Position numbers and translations under genes: made by a program. Shown in pieces: positions 18,485-60,260 of a DNA stretch of 64,000 nucleotides. Source of the DNA: Candidatus Dojkabacteria bacterium (GTDB lineage Bacteria; Patescibacteriota; Dojkabacteria; B142; WJKM01); assembly GCA_014729085.1 (NCBI GenBank), contig WJKM01000009.1, positions 61,973-125,972 on the forward strand, written 5' to 3'. The notes beneath the pieces are model-generated. The model saw only the letters and a program-made list of their open reading frames with translations, had not been told where the DNA came from and did not search any database. Position 1 is the stretch's first letter. Every line of letters begins with the position of its first letter.

Positions 18485-18916
18485 ATGTTACGAAAAATGA
18501 AAAAAGAGCGATATTCATTATTTTCAGATGGAGGAGCAAGAGGCAATCCAGGGCCTGCAGGTATTGGCTTTCTAGTATTCAAAGGTAAAAAACTTATAAA
18601 ATTCGATGGCAAATATATTGGTATCTCTACAAACAACAAAGCGGAATACAAAGCTTTAATTATGGGTTTGAAACAGATACAGAAATTAAATATTAAGGAA
18701 ATAGTTTGCTATTTAGATAGTGAGTTAATAGTTAAACAAATCAAGGGTGAATATAAAGTCAAGAGTCCTGACCTGAAGCCTCTTTTTGAAACCGTACAAA
18801 CATATTTATCTAAAATTAAAAATATTTCTTTTGTTCATATACCAAGATCTTCTAATTCATTCGCAGATAAACTTGCCAATATTGCCCTTGATGCAGCTGA
18901 AGACTCACAAAAATAG
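18485..18916 (+). CDS. rnhA: Ribonuclease HI
   Basis: SDGGARGNPGPAGIGF, NNKAEYKALIMGL and a C-terminal ...NSFADKLAN block: the RNase H fold and catalytic-residue pattern. Confidence 0.8.
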   Translation: MLRKMKKERYSLFSDGGARGNPGPAGIGFLVFKGKKLIKFDGKYIGISTNNKAEYKALIMGLKQIQKLNIKEIVCYLDSELIVKQIKGEYKVKSPDLKPLFETVQTYLSKIKNISFVHIPRSSNSFADKLANIALDAAEDSQK

Positions 18917-20669: not shown

Positions 20670-21867
20670 AAAACTAGTCAAATCATTTAAAGATCAATTC
20701 ATAATGCTTGTTGGATCTAATCTTATTGGTTTGCTTAGTCTGATTTTTGCTTTGTTGCTTCTGTATATTGGAAACAAAGGACAGTATAATCTTTACACAT
20801 CTTATACTTCTATTTTTGCGGTATTTTTAGTTCCAAGTAAGCTTATTAAAAGTTTAGCTACAACATATGGTTTAGCAGTCTTCGACAAGGTTCATAGTTT
20901 TTATAATAAATTAAACAGAAATAAATACTGGCTTTTATTATTCTTTTTAGTTTATTTAATCTTAGTTTATTTTATAACTGTTTATATAAAAGGTACTTAT
21001 TTTACAACCGCATTTTTAATTCTTACTGCTGTCTCACAGATAATTCTTCAAGTATTTATAGGAATTATTCAAAATAGAAAAAAGTTTTTTGAATCATCAA
21101 TGATTCTTATAATTCAAAGTATTGGCAAAATTATTCTAGCTTTAGTTTTATTTTATTTTGTTCTTGTAAATGGAATCTGGTTTGCTTTCTTTATGGTATC
21201 CGTTATTACAAACTTTTTTTTAATAAATAACTTTCGCAAAAAATATCAAGATAGAGTGAATAAAACCAATTCAAAAATATTCAATTCAGATATTTTGATT
21301 AATTTGTTTCTTTTAATGAGTTTAGAATTACTATTTAATTTTGATGCAATACTTGCCTCAACCAAATTAAATGCAAACGAGGCCTATATCTACAATTCAT
21401 TAGTATTAGTGAAAAAAACTCTATTTTTCAGTGTTTTTGGACTTACCCAGATTGTTTTGGCTGAATCTCGGAAAATAGAAACTAAAAAAATAAATTCTCT
21501 TATAAAGAATTTATTAATTACTGTCTTAGTTTCAGTTGCTGCGGCAATAGTATTTATTTTGTTTAAAAATATAATCTTTAAGATTATCAATTTAGATATC
21601 AATTATATGAGTTTTTACATTAAATTCATCTTTACAAGCATACTGTTTTCGGTTTTATTTATGATTGGTACATGGTTTACAAGCTTTAGAAACAAGTTTA
21701 TCAGGATTAGTTTATCTTTGTTTATATTGTTTTTTGTTTTTTATTACTTTCAAGTAGTAAAAAACCTTGAAAATATGATAGATATATTTATTTGGGGAAA
21801 TATTGTATTGATCGCTATTCAAATTGGATTAGGCGGTGTGAAATATTTAACTACAAGAAAATTATGA
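20659..21867 (+). CDS. Polytopic membrane protein, possible polysaccharide/lipid-linked-oligosaccharide flippase (MOP/Wzx-like)
   Basis: About 10-12 predicted TM helices. It overlaps the LCP gene by 11 nt (operon). Confidence 0.4.
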   Translation: MEIKKLVKSFKDQFIMLVGSNLIGLLSLIFALLLLYIGNKGQYNLYTSYTSIFAVFLVPSKLIKSLATTYGLAVFDKVHSFYNKLNRNKYWLLLFFLVYLILVYFITVYIKGTYFTTAFLILTAVSQIILQVFIGIIQNRKKFFESSMILIIQSIGKIILALVLFYFVLVNGIWFAFFMVSVITNFFLINNFRKKYQDRVNKTNSKIFNSDILINLFLLMSLELLFNFDAILASTKLNANEAYIYNSLVLVKKTLFFSVFGLTQIVLAESRKIETKKINSLIKNLLITVLVSVAAAIVFILFKNIIFKIINLDINYMSFYIKFIFTSILFSVLFMIGTWFTSFRNKFIRISLSLFILFFVFYYFQVVKNLENMIDIFIWGNIVLIAIQIGLGGVKYLTTRKL

Positions 21868-21967
21868 TTATATTTGTCGTTGCAAACTTATCTCTATGAA
21901 GACAGGTAATATTTTATACTACTTCGAATTTCTCTTATAATCTAAGAAAATCATAAATATAATTTTA

Positions 21968-22525
21968 ATGAAATATCTAGAATTAACTAAACAATTTATT
22001 AAGTCAAAGGCGGATGAAAAGGGAAAGAAAATAGATCATCTACAAAATACACTTCATTGGGTTAAACAATTAGATCCTCAAGCAGATGAAGCATTGCAAA
22101 TTGCTGCCTTTGCCCATGATGTCTCTAGGCTTGTATTAGGTGTTGACATAAGTGAACTGAAGGAAAATAAAAAAGGTTTTCTGGATGTCGAACATATGCG
22201 AGAGCATCAAGAAAAAGGAGCAGAGATTATCACAAAATATTTATTAGAAAAAGGTGCGGATAAAGAGTTTGTTAGCGATGTTGGACAGTTAATTTCTTTT
22301 CATGAGGTGGGTGGAACTCCAAGAGCAGATATTTTGAAAGATGCAGATAGTATAAGTTTTTTCGAAACAAACGCAGAGGATTTCATTAAAAAATTTGTTC
22401 CCTTAGTAGGTAAAGAAAAAGTTGAAGACAAGATAACGTGGATGTTCGCAAGAATAAGTTTGGATAAAGCTAGAGATATTGTACGGGATATGTATAAGGA
22501 GTGCATTAAGAAATGTAGAAAATAG
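21968..22525 (+). CDS. HD-domain phosphohydrolase
   Basis: H...HD motif (AAFAHDVSR) and downstream His/Asp metal ligands. Confidence 0.6.
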   Translation: MKYLELTKQFIKSKADEKGKKIDHLQNTLHWVKQLDPQADEALQIAAFAHDVSRLVLGVDISELKENKKGFLDVEHMREHQEKGAEIITKYLLEKGADKEFVSDVGQLISFHEVGGTPRADILKDADSISFFETNAEDFIKKFVPLVGKEKVEDKITWMFARISLDKARDIVRDMYKECIKKCRK

Positions 22526-22529
22526 ATCT

Positions 22530-22598
22530 GGGGGAAATTTGAGATTCATATGCTCGCTCTCCCAGCGAGTACGTTAGAGACCACTCTGTCATTTGTCC
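22530..22598 (-). pseudogene. Degenerate copy of tRNA-Ser (D-arm plus anticodon arm retained, T-arm decayed), carrying a copy of the upstream promoter region
   Basis: atgacagagtggtctctaacgtactcgctgggagagcgag aligns with the D/anticodon region of the intact tRNA-Ser at 24327-24413. The 5'-flank ccattaatccagattggatatttt aligns with ccattcatttatactggatatttt of the intact gene. Confidence 0.5.
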
Positions 22599-22744
22599 AT
22601 TAATCCAGATTGGATATTTTAATCTCAATTTATTAGATTTAAAATTTGAAGATTGTATTAAAGACTATTTAGCGTTTAGTTAGTTATTCTATACAGATTC
22701 TTTAAAATTTTTCTAAAATATGGGCTGGTTAATATGCCTATATT

Positions 22745-23734
22745 TTATGGTTCTTCTGTCTGTGTACGTTCTTTAATATAATTTTTAACATCTATATTTT
22801 TTACTCTCATTCCTGCTGTCAATGAACAGAAACTATTTTTCCCATACATTGTATTTGAAGCAACTGCTGGACCGAGATATTCACAATTTGGGTTGCATAT
22901 AAATAGACCACCTCCACTGTCACCCTGTTGGAATGCATTTGTAGTGAATGAGTTCTCAAATGTTTCGCAAAGTGAGATATCGCCTTCTAGAAGTTGATCG
23001 TATAACTTTACTGTGGTAGTAACATCATCTAAGTTAGTAACATCATCTGGTAGAGGTGCTAGGCATATAAGTCTATCGTCATCCGGGAGCATATTTTCGG
23101 AACCTGAAAATTGGAGGCAAGTATCATCCGGCAAAGTTATAAATTCTTTTATTTCTTTAGGAGATTTAGATTCATATTCTTCACCTCTGTCTTGATTATG
23201 GATAGCTAGATAGACAAGTTCCCCAGGTTGTAAATTTCCTTCAGATACATCGACGGTTGGTGCATTGGGCATTTCCATTTGCGTAAAAGCTACGTCATAC
23301 CAAATTTTGGACCAGTCGTCATGATGGATTATATGTGTATTGAGAAATGTATTATTCTGAAATTTTACATAATCTTTTGATCTGTATTTTTGCTCATTAC
23401 CTGGACGAGAGTCTACTGCACTACAGTGTGCTGCAGTAATTCCATAGGCTTGGTCTTCCAAACTTTCAGCTATAACTCCCTGGCAGCCATGATAGTATTC
23501 CAAAGGTTCGCCTCTCTGATCTCCGAGTGAAATTGTTGCTTCCCATGGAATTGGCGGATCAGATGATAAAACAGTTTCATCAAATGGAGAATTTAAATCC
23601 CTTGGTGTTGGATCCGGCCTTATTGATTCATCTTCTGTAGACAGCGTTGTAGGTTGATCACATCCGCTTAATAGTAGCATTGTTATTAAACCTATAGGTA
23701 GCCCCAAACGTTTTAAAAAGTTTTCTTGTTCCAT
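22745..23734 (-). CDS. Secreted trypsin-like (S1) serine protease, lipoprotein
   Basis: Lipobox LLSGC. Catalytic His in TAAHC and Ser in GDSGGGLF. Confidence 0.7.
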   Translation of the reverse strand: MEQENFLKRLGLPIGLITMLLLSGCDQPTTLSTEDESIRPDPTPRDLNSPFDETVLSSDPPIPWEATISLGDQRGEPLEYYHGCQGVIAESLEDQAYGITAAHCSAVDSRPGNEQKYRSKDYVKFQNNTFLNTHIIHHDDWSKIWYDVAFTQMEMPNAPTVDVSEGNLQPGELVYLAIHNQDRGEEYESKSPKEIKEFITLPDDTCLQFSGSENMLPDDDRLICLAPLPDDVTNLDDVTTTVKLYDQLLEGDISLCETFENSFTTNAFQQGDSGGGLFICNPNCEYLGPAVASNTMYGKNSFCSLTAGMRVKNIDVKNYIKERTQTEEP

Positions 23735-24027
23735 ATAGTTTGATAAATGTATATGAAAAATAAGTTTTGCATTATATCACAAAGATATATTAGTTGTATG
23801 CGAAAGTGCTTACCAAATTAAGGTGATACTCTAATAGGAAAATATGAAAGTATGAGGAGAAACAATGTATCATATTTAGCTTTTAAAGCATAAAATAAAG
23901 AATATTATTCAATAGAGGTTTAGGTTAAGGAAAGAATAAAATTAAGGGAATTTTGAGGAAATGTCTGGGTAGGGATAGAGGTAAGCTTTGAGGAGAGCAC
24001 TTTACTTCATTAAGAAAATGCAACTAG

Positions 24028-24042
24028 CCTGCCTTGGGCAGG
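24028..24042. terminator. GC-rich hairpin (CCTGCC-TTG-GGCAGG) flanked by T-rich tracts, a possible bidirectional terminator
   Basis: A perfect 6-bp GC stem, followed by atattttct on the plus strand and preceded by the complement of tagttgcattttctt. Confidence 0.3.
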
Positions 24043-24080
24043 ATATTTTCTAAATTTAGCATCCTAATTCTTAAGCTCTA

Positions 24081-24108
24081 TCTTCATCTTCATCTTCATC
24101 TTCATCTT
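24081..24108. repeat. Hexanucleotide microsatellite (TCTTCA) of about 4.7 units
   Basis: tcttcatcttcatcttcatcttcatctt read directly from the sequence. Confidence 0.85.
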
Positions 24109-24233
24109 AACCTTATTTTGCCTTTGGAAAATAGACGAATGAGAAATAATCAGAAAAGTGGAAGGTTAAGAAAAAGTTTAAGATTAAGGGAATTTTGAGA
24201 AATTATTGAGTCAGACTTTGTAAAAGCAAAATT

Positions 24234-24249
24234 CGGAGAGAGGGGGATT
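24234..24249. repeat. 16-nt direct repeat of the tRNA-Ser 3' end (cggagagagggggatt), att-site-like
   Basis: Identical to 24327-24342 (T-arm/acceptor 3' strand of the tRNA), 93 bp away. Confidence 0.8.
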
Positions 24250-24268
24250 TCCCGTACAAATCTCATTT

Positions 24269-24299
24269 CATTCAATTTTACGGGACAGGCTTCTCATCC
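24269..24299 (-). other. Conserved about-31-nt tRNA-trailer motif, copy A (GGATGAGAAGCCTGTCCCGTAAAATTGAATG in tRNA orientation)
   Basis: Lies 27 nt downstream of the tRNA-Ser 3' end. Copy B (60202-60233) has a near-identical core at the same spacing from tRNA-Leu. Confidence 0.5.
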
Positions 24300-24326
24300 C
24301 CCTAGTAATTTATTGCTAAAGCGAAA

Positions 24327-24413
24327 CGGAGAGAGGGGGATTCGAACCCCCGATGAGCTTCCGCCCATACTCGCTCTCCAAGCGAGCGCGTTAGACCACT
24401 CTGCCATCTCTCC
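24327..24413 (-). tRNA. tRNA-Ser (anticodon GGA), class II with a long variable arm
   Basis: Manual cloverleaf: acceptor GGAGAGA/TCTCTCC, anticodon stem CTCGC/GCGAG with loop TTGGAGA, T-arm GGGGG-TTCGAAT-CCCCC, 87 nt, discriminator G, no encoded CCA. Confidence 0.85.
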
Positions 24414-24775
24414 ATTCATTTATACTGGATATTTTATCAGATAATTAGGAGATTACATAAAATTAAAGTTGAAAACTTTTCTATTTCTCATATTCCTTGG
24501 TAAATAGACATTTGATGTCATTATATATTAATGATAATAAACAGATACGCACAATAGCTATAGATATAGTTCTGGTATTATCCCAGAAGATTATTATGGA
24601 TCATTGAGTTGACACAAGAGTAAGGAGCTATTTAAGAATAACAAGCATAAAATTGTTTTAGATTAAAAATATATACCTATTGAATAGCATGTAGAATGAG
24701 TGATTATTAATTAATATAAAAAGATAGACTAGTAGCATTATCATTCAAAAGGATCCATGTTATACTATTTCCAAC

Positions 24776-25915
24776 ATGGGTAATCAAGCTGCTAATAATC
24801 AAGAACCACTTTTTACAATCTCTCTAGACTTACAGGGAAAAGATACGCGTATTTCTTTAGGGTGCATATTTTCTATTTCAATTGTAGTAACCAGCTTTGT
24901 AACTTTTTTTATATTGGCAATTATTACATTAGTTATTCCAGGTTTATCAAAAATTCCTTTAATTCCTACCTTAATAATACTTTGCTTTACTAATACAATT
25001 TCTCTTGTTTTTTTATATAGCTCAATTAAAAAAGGAGTAAAGAATTCTTACATAGCTTTTTATAATAATTATGTATTTGAACATAAAGAGATATATTTGA
25101 TTCCTTTTGCAAAGCCTAAGATAGAAGAGTTATCAATACTATACTCCCAGATTACTAATATCGAAATAGAAAATGAAAAAGTTTTTACGATATACTCCCA
25201 TTATCCTTCAAAGATTACTATATTCTCTTCTAACGCAAACCAAGTATATAATTGGATTATAGGAGTTTTATCTCAAAATAAAACATTTTATTCAGTTATT
25301 GATCAAACTCAACATTTGTTAAGTTATTCCTATTCTTTACCTAATGGATATTTTTTTCAAAAAGATATGAGTAGCCAGGAGTGGACGGCGAAAGTTCGTT
25401 CTGGGGGGGCGGGTAGGATATATGATATCTATAATACTAACAGTACTCATCCAGTAGCTTATATTAAGTTCCCAATCAATATGAATGTTGGTATTGATTT
25501 TTTTTTATATAGTATAAAAGATAATAACTTATTGTACTGGGGAAATTTTCATCAACAATCAAGTTTACATATTGGATTAACGCATAAAGTACAGACTTAT
25601 TCTATATATTTTGGAAATGGAATGTGTTTAGCATTGGGGAAGATGAACTCAACACAGTTTATAATTGGAAAAGAAGATTATGAAATCCAACTTGGAACAG
25701 ATTTGATTACATATAGAGGTAAAGATTTAGCTTTAAAAGAGGCGGGAGAAATAAAGATTAATAATATACCTAGATATAGAATCATTACAAATAATATTTT
25801 AAGTGAAATTAAAGCTACTTCATCAACGTCTCCAATCCCTTTTAGATTATTTTCTGTATTAGTAATGGGTATTACAGCTCAAAAAGAAATGAAATCTGAC
25901 GAAAATAAGCATTAA
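24776..25915 (+). CDS. Hypothetical membrane protein (2 N-terminal TM helices plus a soluble domain)
   Basis: A long ORF in a gene-dense context with no recognizable motifs. Confidence 0.4.
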   Translation: MGNQAANNQEPLFTISLDLQGKDTRISLGCIFSISIVVTSFVTFFILAIITLVIPGLSKIPLIPTLIILCFTNTISLVFLYSSIKKGVKNSYIAFYNNYVFEHKEIYLIPFAKPKIEELSILYSQITNIEIENEKVFTIYSHYPSKITIFSSNANQVYNWIIGVLSQNKTFYSVIDQTQHLLSYSYSLPNGYFFQKDMSSQEWTAKVRSGGAGRIYDIYNTNSTHPVAYIKFPINMNVGIDFFLYSIKDNNLLYWGNFHQQSSLHIGLTHKVQTYSIYFGNGMCLALGKMNSTQFIIGKEDYEIQLGTDLITYRGKDLALKEAGEIKINNIPRYRIITNNILSEIKATSSTSPIPFRLFSVLVMGITAQKEMKSDENKH

Positions 25916-27556: not shown

Positions 27557-28396
27557 ATGGCTAATATCGTTATTTCAAAACCAAATAAATTCAAACATAA
27601 AGTTGAACAATTTATTAAGGATGGAAAAGATAATTTACATATAATCTCAGATTGCGATCGAACTTTAACAAAATGTGTAATTGATGGAGTAAATATGCCT
27701 GCTTTAATACAGATGATTTCACTCCAAGAAAGTTTCAATTGTGATTATTCGAAAAAAGCCGAGGCTTTATTTAAAAAATATCATCCGCTTGAATTGGATG
27801 ATAAAATTTCCCAAGAACGCAAGAATGAATATATGCACGAATGGTGGAGCAAACACTATGCTTTGCTTATAAAGTGTGGTCTGAATAGAACTATAATAGA
27901 AAGAATCATAAGTAAATATGAAGATGTGTTTAGGAAATATGTTTTGGAGTTCTTGAGTCTACTTAATCAGAATGAAGTTCCTTTATTGATTTTTTCTTCT
28001 GGACTTGGGGATTTAATTACTGGTTTTCTGGAAAAAGAGGAAAGCTTATACCAAAATATCACAATTGTATCCAACTTTTTTAATTTCAATAATAAAGATG
28101 AGGTTATTGGGTTAAAATCTGAGATTGTACATGTATTTAATAAGTTTGACATCAAAAAGCATGCGTCAGAATATATTAAGAAAACCAAAGAAAGAACAAA
28201 TATAATTTTAATTGGTGATTCAATGGGAGATCTAAGAATGACTGAACAGCTTGAATTTGAAAATATTATTAGAATTGGTTTTTTAAATGAGGATGTAGAT
28301 AAAAAGATAAAAAAATATGAAGAAGAATATGATCTAGTATTATTTCAAAATTCTAGCTTTAAACCCATTTTGTCTTTATTAAAGCAAATATCTTAA
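27557..28396 (+). CDS. HAD-superfamily pyrimidine 5'-nucleotidase-like protein (UMPH-1/NT5C3 family)
   Basis: HIISDCDRTLTKCVIDG matches the NT5C3 motif-I region (IITDFDMTLSRF). IFSSGLGDLITGFL matches IFSAGIGDVLEEV. There is a C-terminal GDSMGD motif. Size is 279 aa. Confidence 0.5.
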   Translation: MANIVISKPNKFKHKVEQFIKDGKDNLHIISDCDRTLTKCVIDGVNMPALIQMISLQESFNCDYSKKAEALFKKYHPLELDDKISQERKNEYMHEWWSKHYALLIKCGLNRTIIERIISKYEDVFRKYVLEFLSLLNQNEVPLLIFSSGLGDLITGFLEKEESLYQNITIVSNFFNFNNKDEVIGLKSEIVHVFNKFDIKKHASEYIKKTKERTNIILIGDSMGDLRMTEQLEFENIIRIGFLNEDVDKKIKKYEEEYDLVLFQNSSFKPILSLLKQIS

Positions 28397-60201: not shown

Positions 60202-60233
60202 CATTTAAAATTTCCGGGACAGGCTTATCATCC
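60202..60233 (-). other. Conserved about-31-nt tRNA-trailer motif, copy B (GGATGATAAGCCTGTCCCGGAAATTTTAAATG in tRNA orientation)
   Basis: The 19-nt core cgggacaggctt(a/c)tcatcc differs at 1 position between the copies. Both lie exactly 27 nt past the tRNA 3' end. Confidence 0.5.
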
Positions 60234-60260
60234 TGCAAAGTATCTATGTAGAATTCTAAG

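Follow-up and report, generated by a model that had tools for sequence, protein, structure and literature searches.

Features of the tRNA-Ser locus

The tRNA-Ser(GGA) gene of a Candidatus Dojkabacteria bacterium, a member of the candidate phyla radiation (CPR), was examined with its surroundings in a 64,000-nt stretch of a metagenome-assembled genome (GenBank assembly GCA_014729085.1; contig WJKM01000009.1, positions 61,973–125,972 of the forward strand), which is referred to here as the window and supplies the coordinates used below. The intact gene (24326–24414, minus strand) is followed by a second copy of the last 16 nt of the tRNA, by a non-coding spacer, by a gene with protease motifs and by a decayed further copy of the tRNA. 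In a preliminary description of the region, the 16-nt repeat was taken for the footprint of site-specific integration or excision, and the segment with the protease gene for the remnant of an element or a rearranged tRNA tandem. The sequence features listed there are all present in the window. Of their interpretation, the decayed tRNA-Ser duplicate and the lack of an active integrase-type element stand, whereas the integration or excision footprint with the protease as its cargo is not supported. The locus is, with a probability of roughly 80%, made up of two independent things, a compact unit resembling the tRNA-linked repeats (TLRs) of the RtT kind in Escherichia coli and a tRNA pseudogene, neither of which is an integrase attachment (att) site.

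The tRNA-Ser gene was identified using ARAGORN and the Rfam tRNA model (54.6 bits). It does not encode the CCA end, and a TAAAAT −10-like box (24431–24436, minus strand) lies upstream.

A structured unit in the tRNA-Ser trailer

The 16-nt repeat, CGGAGAGAGGGGGATT, extends from A58 in the T loop of tRNA-Ser to the discriminator nucleotide. Exactly two copies are present in the 64 kb (24327–24342 within the tRNA gene and 24234–24249 downstream of it), even when three mismatches are allowed, and this part of the preliminary description was therefore correct. The copies are 93 nt apart, start to start, and the 77 nt between them belong to a conserved structured unit, the protease gene being outside the pair.

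The unit (24231–24312, minus strand; 82 nt) begins 14 nt 3′ of the tRNA-Ser gene and has the same orientation, and no terminator was seen in the sequence between them. It was recognised from a motif in common with the tRNA-Leu trailer, from more than 40 units of the same architecture elsewhere, from its fold, and from a covariance model, R1, built from 16 units including that of the window. In the direction of the tRNA, the unit consists of the 5′ strand of an outer helix, P1 (AGGGGGAU; 24303–24296), an invariant 18-nt box (GAUGAGAAGCCUGUCCCG; 24298–24281), a hairpin, P2, with a 6-bp stem formed by CCCGUA and UACGGG (24284–24279 and 24256–24251) and a 22-nt loop, and the 16-nt repeat, which is its 3′ end. 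P1 is an 8-bp helix, AGGGGGAU/AUCCCCCU, in which the 5′ strand pairs with the copy of the T-stem and acceptor 3′ strand of the tRNA (AUCCCCCU; 24248–24241), and both P1 and P2 appear in the predicted fold of the trailer.

When the tRNA trailers in the window were compared, a 26-nt motif, GGAUGAnAAGCCUGUCCCGnAAAnUU, was found to start 26 nt after both tRNA-Ser and tRNA-Leu(UAA). In the trailer of tRNA-Ser, this motif sits within the hairpin whose 3′ arm is the 16-nt repeat. Behind tRNA-Leu(UAA), a decayed second unit is present (60208–60236, minus strand; R1 score 13.7 bits, E = 0.11), which lies 26 nt 3′ of the tRNA. It has a P1 5′ strand, GCAGGAU, with one mismatch to the tRNA-Leu T arm, has kept the box as GAUGAUAAGCCUGUCCCG, and lacks both the tRNA 3′-end copy and the 3′ arm of P2. 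Of the window's three tRNA genes, those for Ser and Leu are thus associated with a present or former unit, and that for Cys is not.

The tRNA-Ser gene and the unit were also folded together (24225–24414, minus strand). In the minimum-energy structure (z = −2.9), the 5′ acceptor strand of the tRNA pairs with the distal 3′ copy, and the P1 strand of the unit pairs with the tRNA's own T-stem 3′ strand. In this model the 3′ ends of the tRNA and of the unit are structurally interchangeable, and the unit could compete with, or back up, the folding and processing of the tRNA. The sequences located 3′ of the two 16-mers are identical at 11 of 14 positions after a 2-nt shift, but as this similarity falls in a T-rich region and is only suggestive, it was not used.

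Units with the same architecture in other genomes

A pattern scan using GATGANAAGCCTGTCCCG of one genome per bacterial and archaeal species returned 114 stretches, and a metagenome scan with a 20-nt version of the pattern returned 18 contigs, almost all of them adjoining tRNAs. Altogether, 57 matches to the box were located within 700 nt 3′ of a co-oriented tRNA, with 19 isoacceptor types represented. Many of the matches from the genome scan lie directly 3′ of a co-oriented tRNA gene in Balneolaceae (Gracilimonas, Balneola and Rhodohalobacter) and other Bacteroidota, and tRNA-linked matches were also found in Marinimicrobia, in Gammaproteobacteria and in one genome of the Patescibacteria (L038). 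The remaining matches were mostly coding or cut by the ends of the retrieved loci. This coding background takes the form GATGAAAAGCCTGTCCCGAA(A/G)TC in GC-rich genomes (L006–L119) and, by our own translation, is the reverse strand of the EAL-domain motif DDFGTGFS. A literature search with sequence strings from the unit returned nothing relevant.

In every tRNA-linked case examined, the parts of the unit follow one another in the same order, namely a spacer, the P1 5′ strand, the box, P2, two purines and the copy of the tRNA 3′ end, with a total length of 60–130 nt. In some units the native 3′ flank, with its terminator, is duplicated in the spacer. The P1 5′ strand ends in GGAU and is complementary to T-loop nucleotides 59–60, the T-stem 3′ strand and the first acceptor nucleotides of the host tRNA, the box between it and P2 (GAGAAGCCUGU) is single-stranded, and P2 has the form CCCG...CGGG with a loop of 6 to ~100 nt. 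The copy is exact, and runs from G57/A58 in the T loop either to the tRNA 3′ end (14–22 nt) or on into the flank (up to ~80 nt). In E. coli RtT, too, and in those units behind tRNA genes that were examined first, the identity block starts at this point, G57/A58. The anatomy of the unit and its recurrence in distant phyla are shown at the level of sequence, and the 16-nt repeat in the window is most probably the built-in tRNA 3′ copy of a compact TLR unit.

Tandem arrays of units were found at three loci (L036, L117 and L127), and a decayed unit was found at L024 in addition to that behind tRNA-Leu in the window. Units are kept at orthologous tRNA-Ser loci and at orthologous rRNA-spacer tRNA-Ala loci across genera of the Balneolaceae. 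In rRNA operons from several of these genera (L010, L023, L047, L076 and L103), the unit is in the 16S–23S spacer after tRNA-Ala(UGC) and upstream of the 23S rRNA gene, and hence within the rRNA primary transcript.

Both helices of the unit covary, and P1 does so with the identity of the host tRNA. The P1 5′ strand follows the tRNA that precedes it, being paired as GGAGGGAU/AUCCCUCC after tRNA-Ser, UAAAGGAU/GUCCUUUA after tRNA-Leu and CCGGAGAGAU/GUCUCUCCGG after tRNA-Lys. In a MAFFT alignment of the 16 seed units, the covariation score was 0.308 against 0.123 after shuffling, a value that none of 500 shuffles reached, and sliding the pairing partners by 1–3 columns gave at most 0.129. In a model-fitted alignment of 43 units, cells in which both sides of a pair had changed numbered 102, against 41 ± 5 after shuffling (again reached in 0 of 500) and at most 44 with partners slid by 1–3 columns. 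This is the behaviour of a single-stranded element that folds, and the simplest such element would be an RNA. When the window was searched with R1, which includes no enterobacterial sequence, two places were found, the tRNA-Ser unit (62 bits, as a member of the seed) and the tRNA-Leu remnant, and no further unit was detected by R1 in the spacer (23735–24326).

Relationship to RtT and other tRNA-linked repeats

According to the account in PMC8144298, the earliest observation of TLRs is that of Egan and Landy (1978), on the 178-bp repeats of tyrT, and a later list by Rudd (1999) has 22 of them, distributed over ten loci of E. coli. The 1991 claim of a role for rtT in the stringent response (Bosl and Kersten 1991) was, by the same account, withdrawn in 1994. 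The hallmark of a TLR is an 18–19 bp 3′ end that is identical to that of the tRNA or 5S gene upstream, and these repeats are described as having "no known function" (PMC8144298). A 2024 preprint likewise gives the mode of action of rttR as still unknown. The 5S-linked TLRs yield an RNA that undergoes processing after co-transcription and has a mapped 3′ end just past the repeated segment; a discrete RNA with a tRNA-type 3′ terminus has been mapped in two cases, rtT of E. coli and the 5S-linked RrB (PMC8144298).

The tyrT-tyrV locus of E. coli K-12 (L121) was examined for comparison. It has four RtT units, each of the form GGGGAAGGAU-GAGAAGC...GAGU-AAUCCUUCCCCCACCACCA, in which P1 is GGGGAAGGAU/AUCCUUCCCC, the box is GAUGAGAAGC and the 3′ copy, AAUCCUUCCCCCACCACCA, begins at A58. 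All four were found by R1, three with ~22 bits (E ~3e-5 in 4.9 kb) and one with 14.5 bits, and were aligned by it on P1, the box and the tRNA end. The box reads GGGAUGAGAAGCC in the window and AGGAUGAGAAGCU in RtT, with GGAUGAGAAGC in common, although the box is not among the published criteria for a TLR.

The unit in the window is similar to RtT in several respects. It too lies just 3′ of a stable RNA gene, here a tRNA gene, with the same orientation, and it finishes with an exact repeat of the tRNA 3′ end that starts, as in RtT, at A58 (16 of 16 nt). In both, the outer helix, which for RtT is that of the structure line of the Rfam consensus, is formed by the 5′ strand and the tRNA copy, and the GGAUGAGAAGC box comes after the 5′ strand. 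Tandem copies, linked to tRNA gene duplication, are possible in both. However, the compact form is 60–130 nt long and its interior is a single variable hairpin, whereas RtT is ~130–178 nt long with several helices. The box continues as CCUGUCCCG in the compact form and as UUCGAC in RtT, and the copy in the window is only 16 nt long because CCA is not encoded, while that of E. coli is 18–19 bp with CCA included. The distribution also differs, with the compact form in CPR, Bacteroidota/Balneolaceae, Marinimicrobia and Gammaproteobacteria and RtT in Enterobacterales.

A further likeness is with the 5S-linked TLRs of E. coli, rrA, rrB and rrF, which include the RrB small RNA. These are trailer elements whose last 18 nt repeat the 3′ end of the stable RNA upstream; they are co-transcribed and processed, and their repeat has been proposed to direct 3′ processing of the stable-RNA type (PMC8144298). 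They differ in being linked to 5S rRNA genes between two terminators and in having GGA motifs that bind CsrA and Hfq (PMC8144298), of which the unit in the window has none, and their box, CCUGAGUAGGAC, is only loosely similar.

When Rfam was used in E-value mode, a unit from the Balneolaceae (L043) gave a weak match to RtT RNA (RF00391; 28.8 bits against a gathering threshold of 45 bits), and none of the 13 unit-bearing loci passed this threshold. In the region of the window and in these 13 loci, no Rfam family other than tRNA scored above threshold, the sX4 and plastid matches being the tRNA itself.

Three further observations were made on the structure of these elements. The interior of RtT (L121) holds a copy of the 5′ half of the tRNA-Tyr T arm, CCAAGGTTCGA, which gives RtT the appearance of a 3′ tRNA fragment whose T loop has received an insertion. 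In the 5S-linked TLR at the 3′ end of rrnB (L123), CCTGAGTAGGAC is similar to the box as well as to part of the 5S rRNA itself. A resemblance of the unit (GAUGAG...GAAA) to the hammerhead or another known ribozyme was also considered and was rejected on inspection, because G8 is absent and no stem II adjoins CUGAUGA; no Rfam ribozyme match was obtained at E ≤ 5.

The pseudo-tRNA-Ser

The decayed copy of tRNA-Ser (22550–22646, minus strand) is co-oriented with the intact gene, 1.8 kb downstream of it, and ~80% identical to 24367–24464. The preliminary description had placed such a copy, with its promoter, at 22530–22620. Alignment of the two copies bore out the similarity and the promoter flank, but gave different limits, with a longer 5′ part. 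The aligned portion comprises ~48 nt of 5′ flank (22599–22646, minus strand), including a TAAAAT −10-like box (22616–22621), and tRNA positions 1–46 (22550–22598, minus strand), that is the acceptor 5′ strand, the D arm and the anticodon arm. The alignment score was 77, against 17.6 ± 2.4 for shuffled sequences, and this is the best non-self match to the tRNA region in the window. Within the copy, 2 nt have been inserted in the D loop and U33 has been replaced by G. The similarity ends at the start of the variable arm, and the 3′ third was not detectable in the alignment. Neither ARAGORN nor the Rfam tRNA model called a tRNA here, as is characteristic of a tRNA pseudogene that retains significant similarity.

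The sequence at 22550–22646 is a tRNA pseudogene, and probably goes back to a segmental duplication or recombination of some age (~20% divergence) with loss of the 3′ part. It resembles a decayed paralogue from a tRNA tandem in keeping the promoter flank, D arm and anticodon arm, and differs in that only the 5′ two-thirds are present and a protein gene and a 590-nt spacer separate the copies. Segmental duplication, or homologous recombination of the Campbell type, would leave a 5′ copy together with its flank, whereas a displaced att fragment would not take this form.

Similar duplication and decay of tRNA genes was seen at other TLR loci, as in tyrT-RtT-tyrV of E. coli and in the order tRNA-Gly, unit, tRNA-Leu, tRNA-Gly, unit at L129. 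At L127 (3116–3640, minus strand; also L141), three tandem units follow a tRNA-like sequence in which the T arm and acceptor 3′ end are intact; ARAGORN and Rfam both reject it, and it is either a decayed or an unusual tRNA. TLR loci are prone to tRNA duplications such as those of tyrT-RtT-tyrV and L127, and it is plausible that unequal exchange between the repeated 3′ ends drives duplication.

The pseudo-tRNA also has a promoter-like sequence, TTTAAA-16-TAAAAT, which points into the 3′ end of a convergent gene (21968–22525, plus strand) encoding a DUF4202/HD protein. If still transcribed, the pseudo-tRNA would give an RNA antisense to the end of this gene.

Interpretation of the unit

As the unit in the window answers to the definition of a TLR, gives no RF00391 score and has a simpler interior, it is classed on these comparisons as a compact variant of the TLR, outside Rfam family RF00391. 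Homology between the unit and RtT is probable, as judged from the box, the junction and the R1 alignment. In E. coli, TLRs have been known since 1978 (RtT/rttR), but a function is still lacking, and only two papers in the collection searched use the term. The compact form would extend this kind of element beyond Enterobacterales. As a minimal version of 60–130 nt, with two helices that covary and a box of 18 nt that is invariant, it would make a widespread RNA element of what had been a curiosity of enterobacteria. The compact consensus is open to biochemical testing, and cultured hosts exist, for example Gracilimonas tropica DSM 19535.

Several points weigh against this interpretation. RF00391 gave no match at E ≤ 1 in positions 21500–25500 of the window, and in place of the multi-helix interior of that family (~85 nt), the unit has one hairpin. 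Homology with RtT, rather than convergence on one architecture, is argued from a modest cross-model score, the junction at A58 and a box of 11 nt. When the trailer was folded by itself, the result was not strongly better than for shuffled sequences (z = −1.75). The searches required a near-exact box of 17–20 nt, so the invariance of the box is partly due to ascertainment and the taxonomic range is that of a biased sample. Transcription of the unit in the tRNA-Ser trailer and its processing to an RNA of ~80 nt, for which the chances are judged about even, are deduced rather than observed. Finally, reconstruction of the origin of the pseudo-tRNA needs related genomes.

A route to such an RNA can nevertheless be proposed. 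With the unit co-oriented with tRNA-Ser, only 14 nt downstream of it and with no terminator between them, it would be transcribed in the tRNA-Ser trailer as part of the primary transcript. The helix of the unit and its tRNA-type 3′ tail would lead the tRNA 3′-end machinery to cut at the copy, and the cut would release a hairpin RNA of ~80 nt with a tRNA-type 3′ terminus, as reported for the E. coli TLR RNAs.

Alternative explanations

The unit may be TLR-like and yet chiefly a tiny non-autonomous mobile element, inserted at T-loop position 57/58 and regenerating the tRNA 3′ end by duplication of its target, with a factor supplied in trans (a recombinase acting on the folded single strand, or a reverse transcriptase) and with any RNA product incidental. 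The junction stays at G57/A58, but the right end of the duplication differs from unit to unit (14 to ~80 nt) and may include the native terminator, the P1 5′ strand resembles a guide for its target, and at least 19 tRNA types are occupied, with an identical box in very distant phyla. The tandem arrays at L036, L117 and L127 and the decayed copies (tRNA-Leu in the window and L024) would also suit a mobile element. However, arrays and long duplications can equally come from unequal crossing-over between 3′-end copies, and retargeting would need the internal P1 strand to change for each tRNA, for which no mechanism is known. The retention of units at orthologous tRNA-Ser and tRNA-Ala loci across Balneolaceae genera fits long-term retention instead. 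No recurring partner protein was found near the units, as an all-against-all BLASTP comparison of the open reading frames (ORFs) at 35 unit-bearing loci detected only local synteny within the Balneolaceae and spurious ORFs in rRNA. Nor was the unit found in viral contigs, where a scan for the box gave one coding chance match, or in plasmids, where BLAST gave matches at chance level only. Mobility as the chief property of the unit is considered unlikely.

A bolder version, which is speculative and quite improbable on present evidence, is that the compact TLR is a self-propagating, RNA-guided mini-element. The P1 5′ strand would guide it to the 3′ helix of a stable RNA, the invariant box, GAGAAGCCUGU, would either be catalytic or bind some universal factor, and new copies would arise at A58 of the T loop. 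In such copying, a folded strand may be acted on in the manner of a ribozyme or by a recombinase, or tRNA 3′ ends may be reverse-transcribed. Retroviral primer-binding sites span the same 18–19 nt, from the 3′ end to A58, which counts in favour of the last route. If this were true, TLRs would be a very small, phylum-spanning class of tRNA-targeting mobile RNA or DNA.

The reading of the 16-mers as attL and attR, produced by integrase-mediated insertion or excision at the 3′ end of tRNA-Ser, with the protease gene and spacer as decayed cargo, is very improbable. The repeat is indeed the 3′ part of the tRNA from the T loop, and the T loop is reportedly a sublocation used by many tyrosine integrases (Williams 2002, Nucleic Acids Res). 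A repeat from A58 to the discriminator is, however, common to att sites and TLRs and does not discriminate between them. The protease gene is an ORFan with a GC content of 0.37–0.38 against 0.24–0.35 for its neighbours, but this is only mildly higher, and the gene lies outside the pair of 16-mers, which bracket nothing but 77 nt of the conserved unit. The preliminary suggestion that the protease segment is the remnant of an element is thus not supported. The accompanying statement that no integrase is present was confirmed: no integrase or recombinase domain was detected by Pfam in the ORFs from 8.5 to 38.7 kb with a length of 120 aa or more, and hence none within 14 kb to either side of the repeats. 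The ORFs in this interval are housekeeping or unknown genes, and include those for LytR, pentose-phosphate enzymes, HMG-CoA reductase, MnmA and signal peptidase.

An integrase arm site would also not be expected to recur with an identical 18-nt box behind many tRNAs in at least five phyla with no neighbouring protein in common, and the viral and plasmid searches described above gave no meaningful match. As in the attL/attR pairs of integrase-borne genomic islands and prophages in tRNA genes, and in their integrase-less derivatives (CIMEs), there is a direct repeat of the tRNA 3′ part from the T loop, the tRNA is intact and tandem accretion is possible. In contrast to them, the locus has no integrase, and between the repeats there is no cargo but a covarying hairpin that is conserved in different phyla and behind different tRNAs. 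The fragment displaced when an element integrates at a tRNA gene is a 3′ one, whereas the pseudo-tRNA is a 5′ copy with a promoter flank. The pseudo-tRNA and the 16-mer are therefore two separate phenomena and not the ends of one element. In annotation, short direct repeats of the 3′ end of tRNA genes are routinely taken for att sites; here the repeat is an intrinsic part of a trailer element, so the logic of island-finding can be misled.

Coincidence in a low-GC genome, for which there is nothing more than an AT-rich background, is a negligible explanation of the 16-mer and the pseudo-tRNA, as 0.15 matches to the 16-mer are expected by chance, none of 100 shuffles had two copies and none of 1000 reached the score of the pseudo-tRNA alignment.

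The spacer, the protease gene and neighbouring genes

The spacer between tRNA-Ser and the protease gene (23735–24326) is non-coding, and the direct repeats, microsatellite and GC hairpin attributed to it in the preliminary description were all found. Two copies of a 42-nt direct repeat (23922–23962 and 24163–24203) were identified by alignment in the upstream region of the protease gene, with a score of 50 that none of 2000 shuffles reached, and these are the only copies in the window. Alignments of this repeat to the tRNA (including its 3′ third), the unit and the pseudo-tRNA were not significant. The repeats may be regulatory sites upstream of the protease gene. An (ATCTTC)x4.8 microsatellite was located at 24080–24108 by a repeat search, and a GC hairpin, CCTGCCTTGGGCAGG followed by ATATTTTCTA (24028–24042), is terminator-like on the plus strand. 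A 54-aa ORF (24034–24198, plus strand), which crosses the microsatellite (LHLHLHLH) after this plus-strand hairpin, is probably spurious.

The only gene between the two tRNA copies (22745–23734, minus strand) encodes an ORFan that appears to be a secreted lipoprotein, with the lipobox LLLSGC and the S1 protease motifs TAAHC and GDSGG. By our own reading, an extended −10-like sequence, TGATATAAT, is present ~35 nt before its start. The gene had been described as that of a trypsin-like lipoprotein protease. The lipobox and motifs agree with this, but the Pfam Trypsin_2 match (19.3 bits) is below the cut-off of 27.6, and "trypsin-like" is used here on the strength of the two catalytic motifs and this sub-threshold match. 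Among 5.8 billion clustered proteins the ORF matched only itself, and among 1.84 billion representatives it matched itself and, weakly and partially, one other protein (32% identity over ~34 residues around GDSGG; E = 2e-08). No sequence match was found in the PDB, and a single-sequence AlphaFold model (predicted local distance difference test score, pLDDT, 31.7) was too poor for a fold search.

Exact-protein look-ups with the protease and the DUF4202 protein gave no matches. The collections searched hold no close relative, and the nearest DUF4202 homologues in them, at most 51% identical, have other neighbours, with no synteny and no tRNA nearby; a 243-aa neighbour at L001 is unrelated to the protease.

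A stand-alone RNase H/RVT_3 protein, which is not a reverse transcriptase, is encoded 5 kb from the locus (18485–18916, plus strand); its interest lies in the suggestion, made above, that TLRs may arise by reverse transcription. On the other side, an ORF (27557–28396, plus strand) strongly matches the UMPH-1 family of pyrimidine 5′-nucleotidases (E = 2.7e-65). As this family is known mostly from eukaryotes, its presence in a CPR genome would be unusual.

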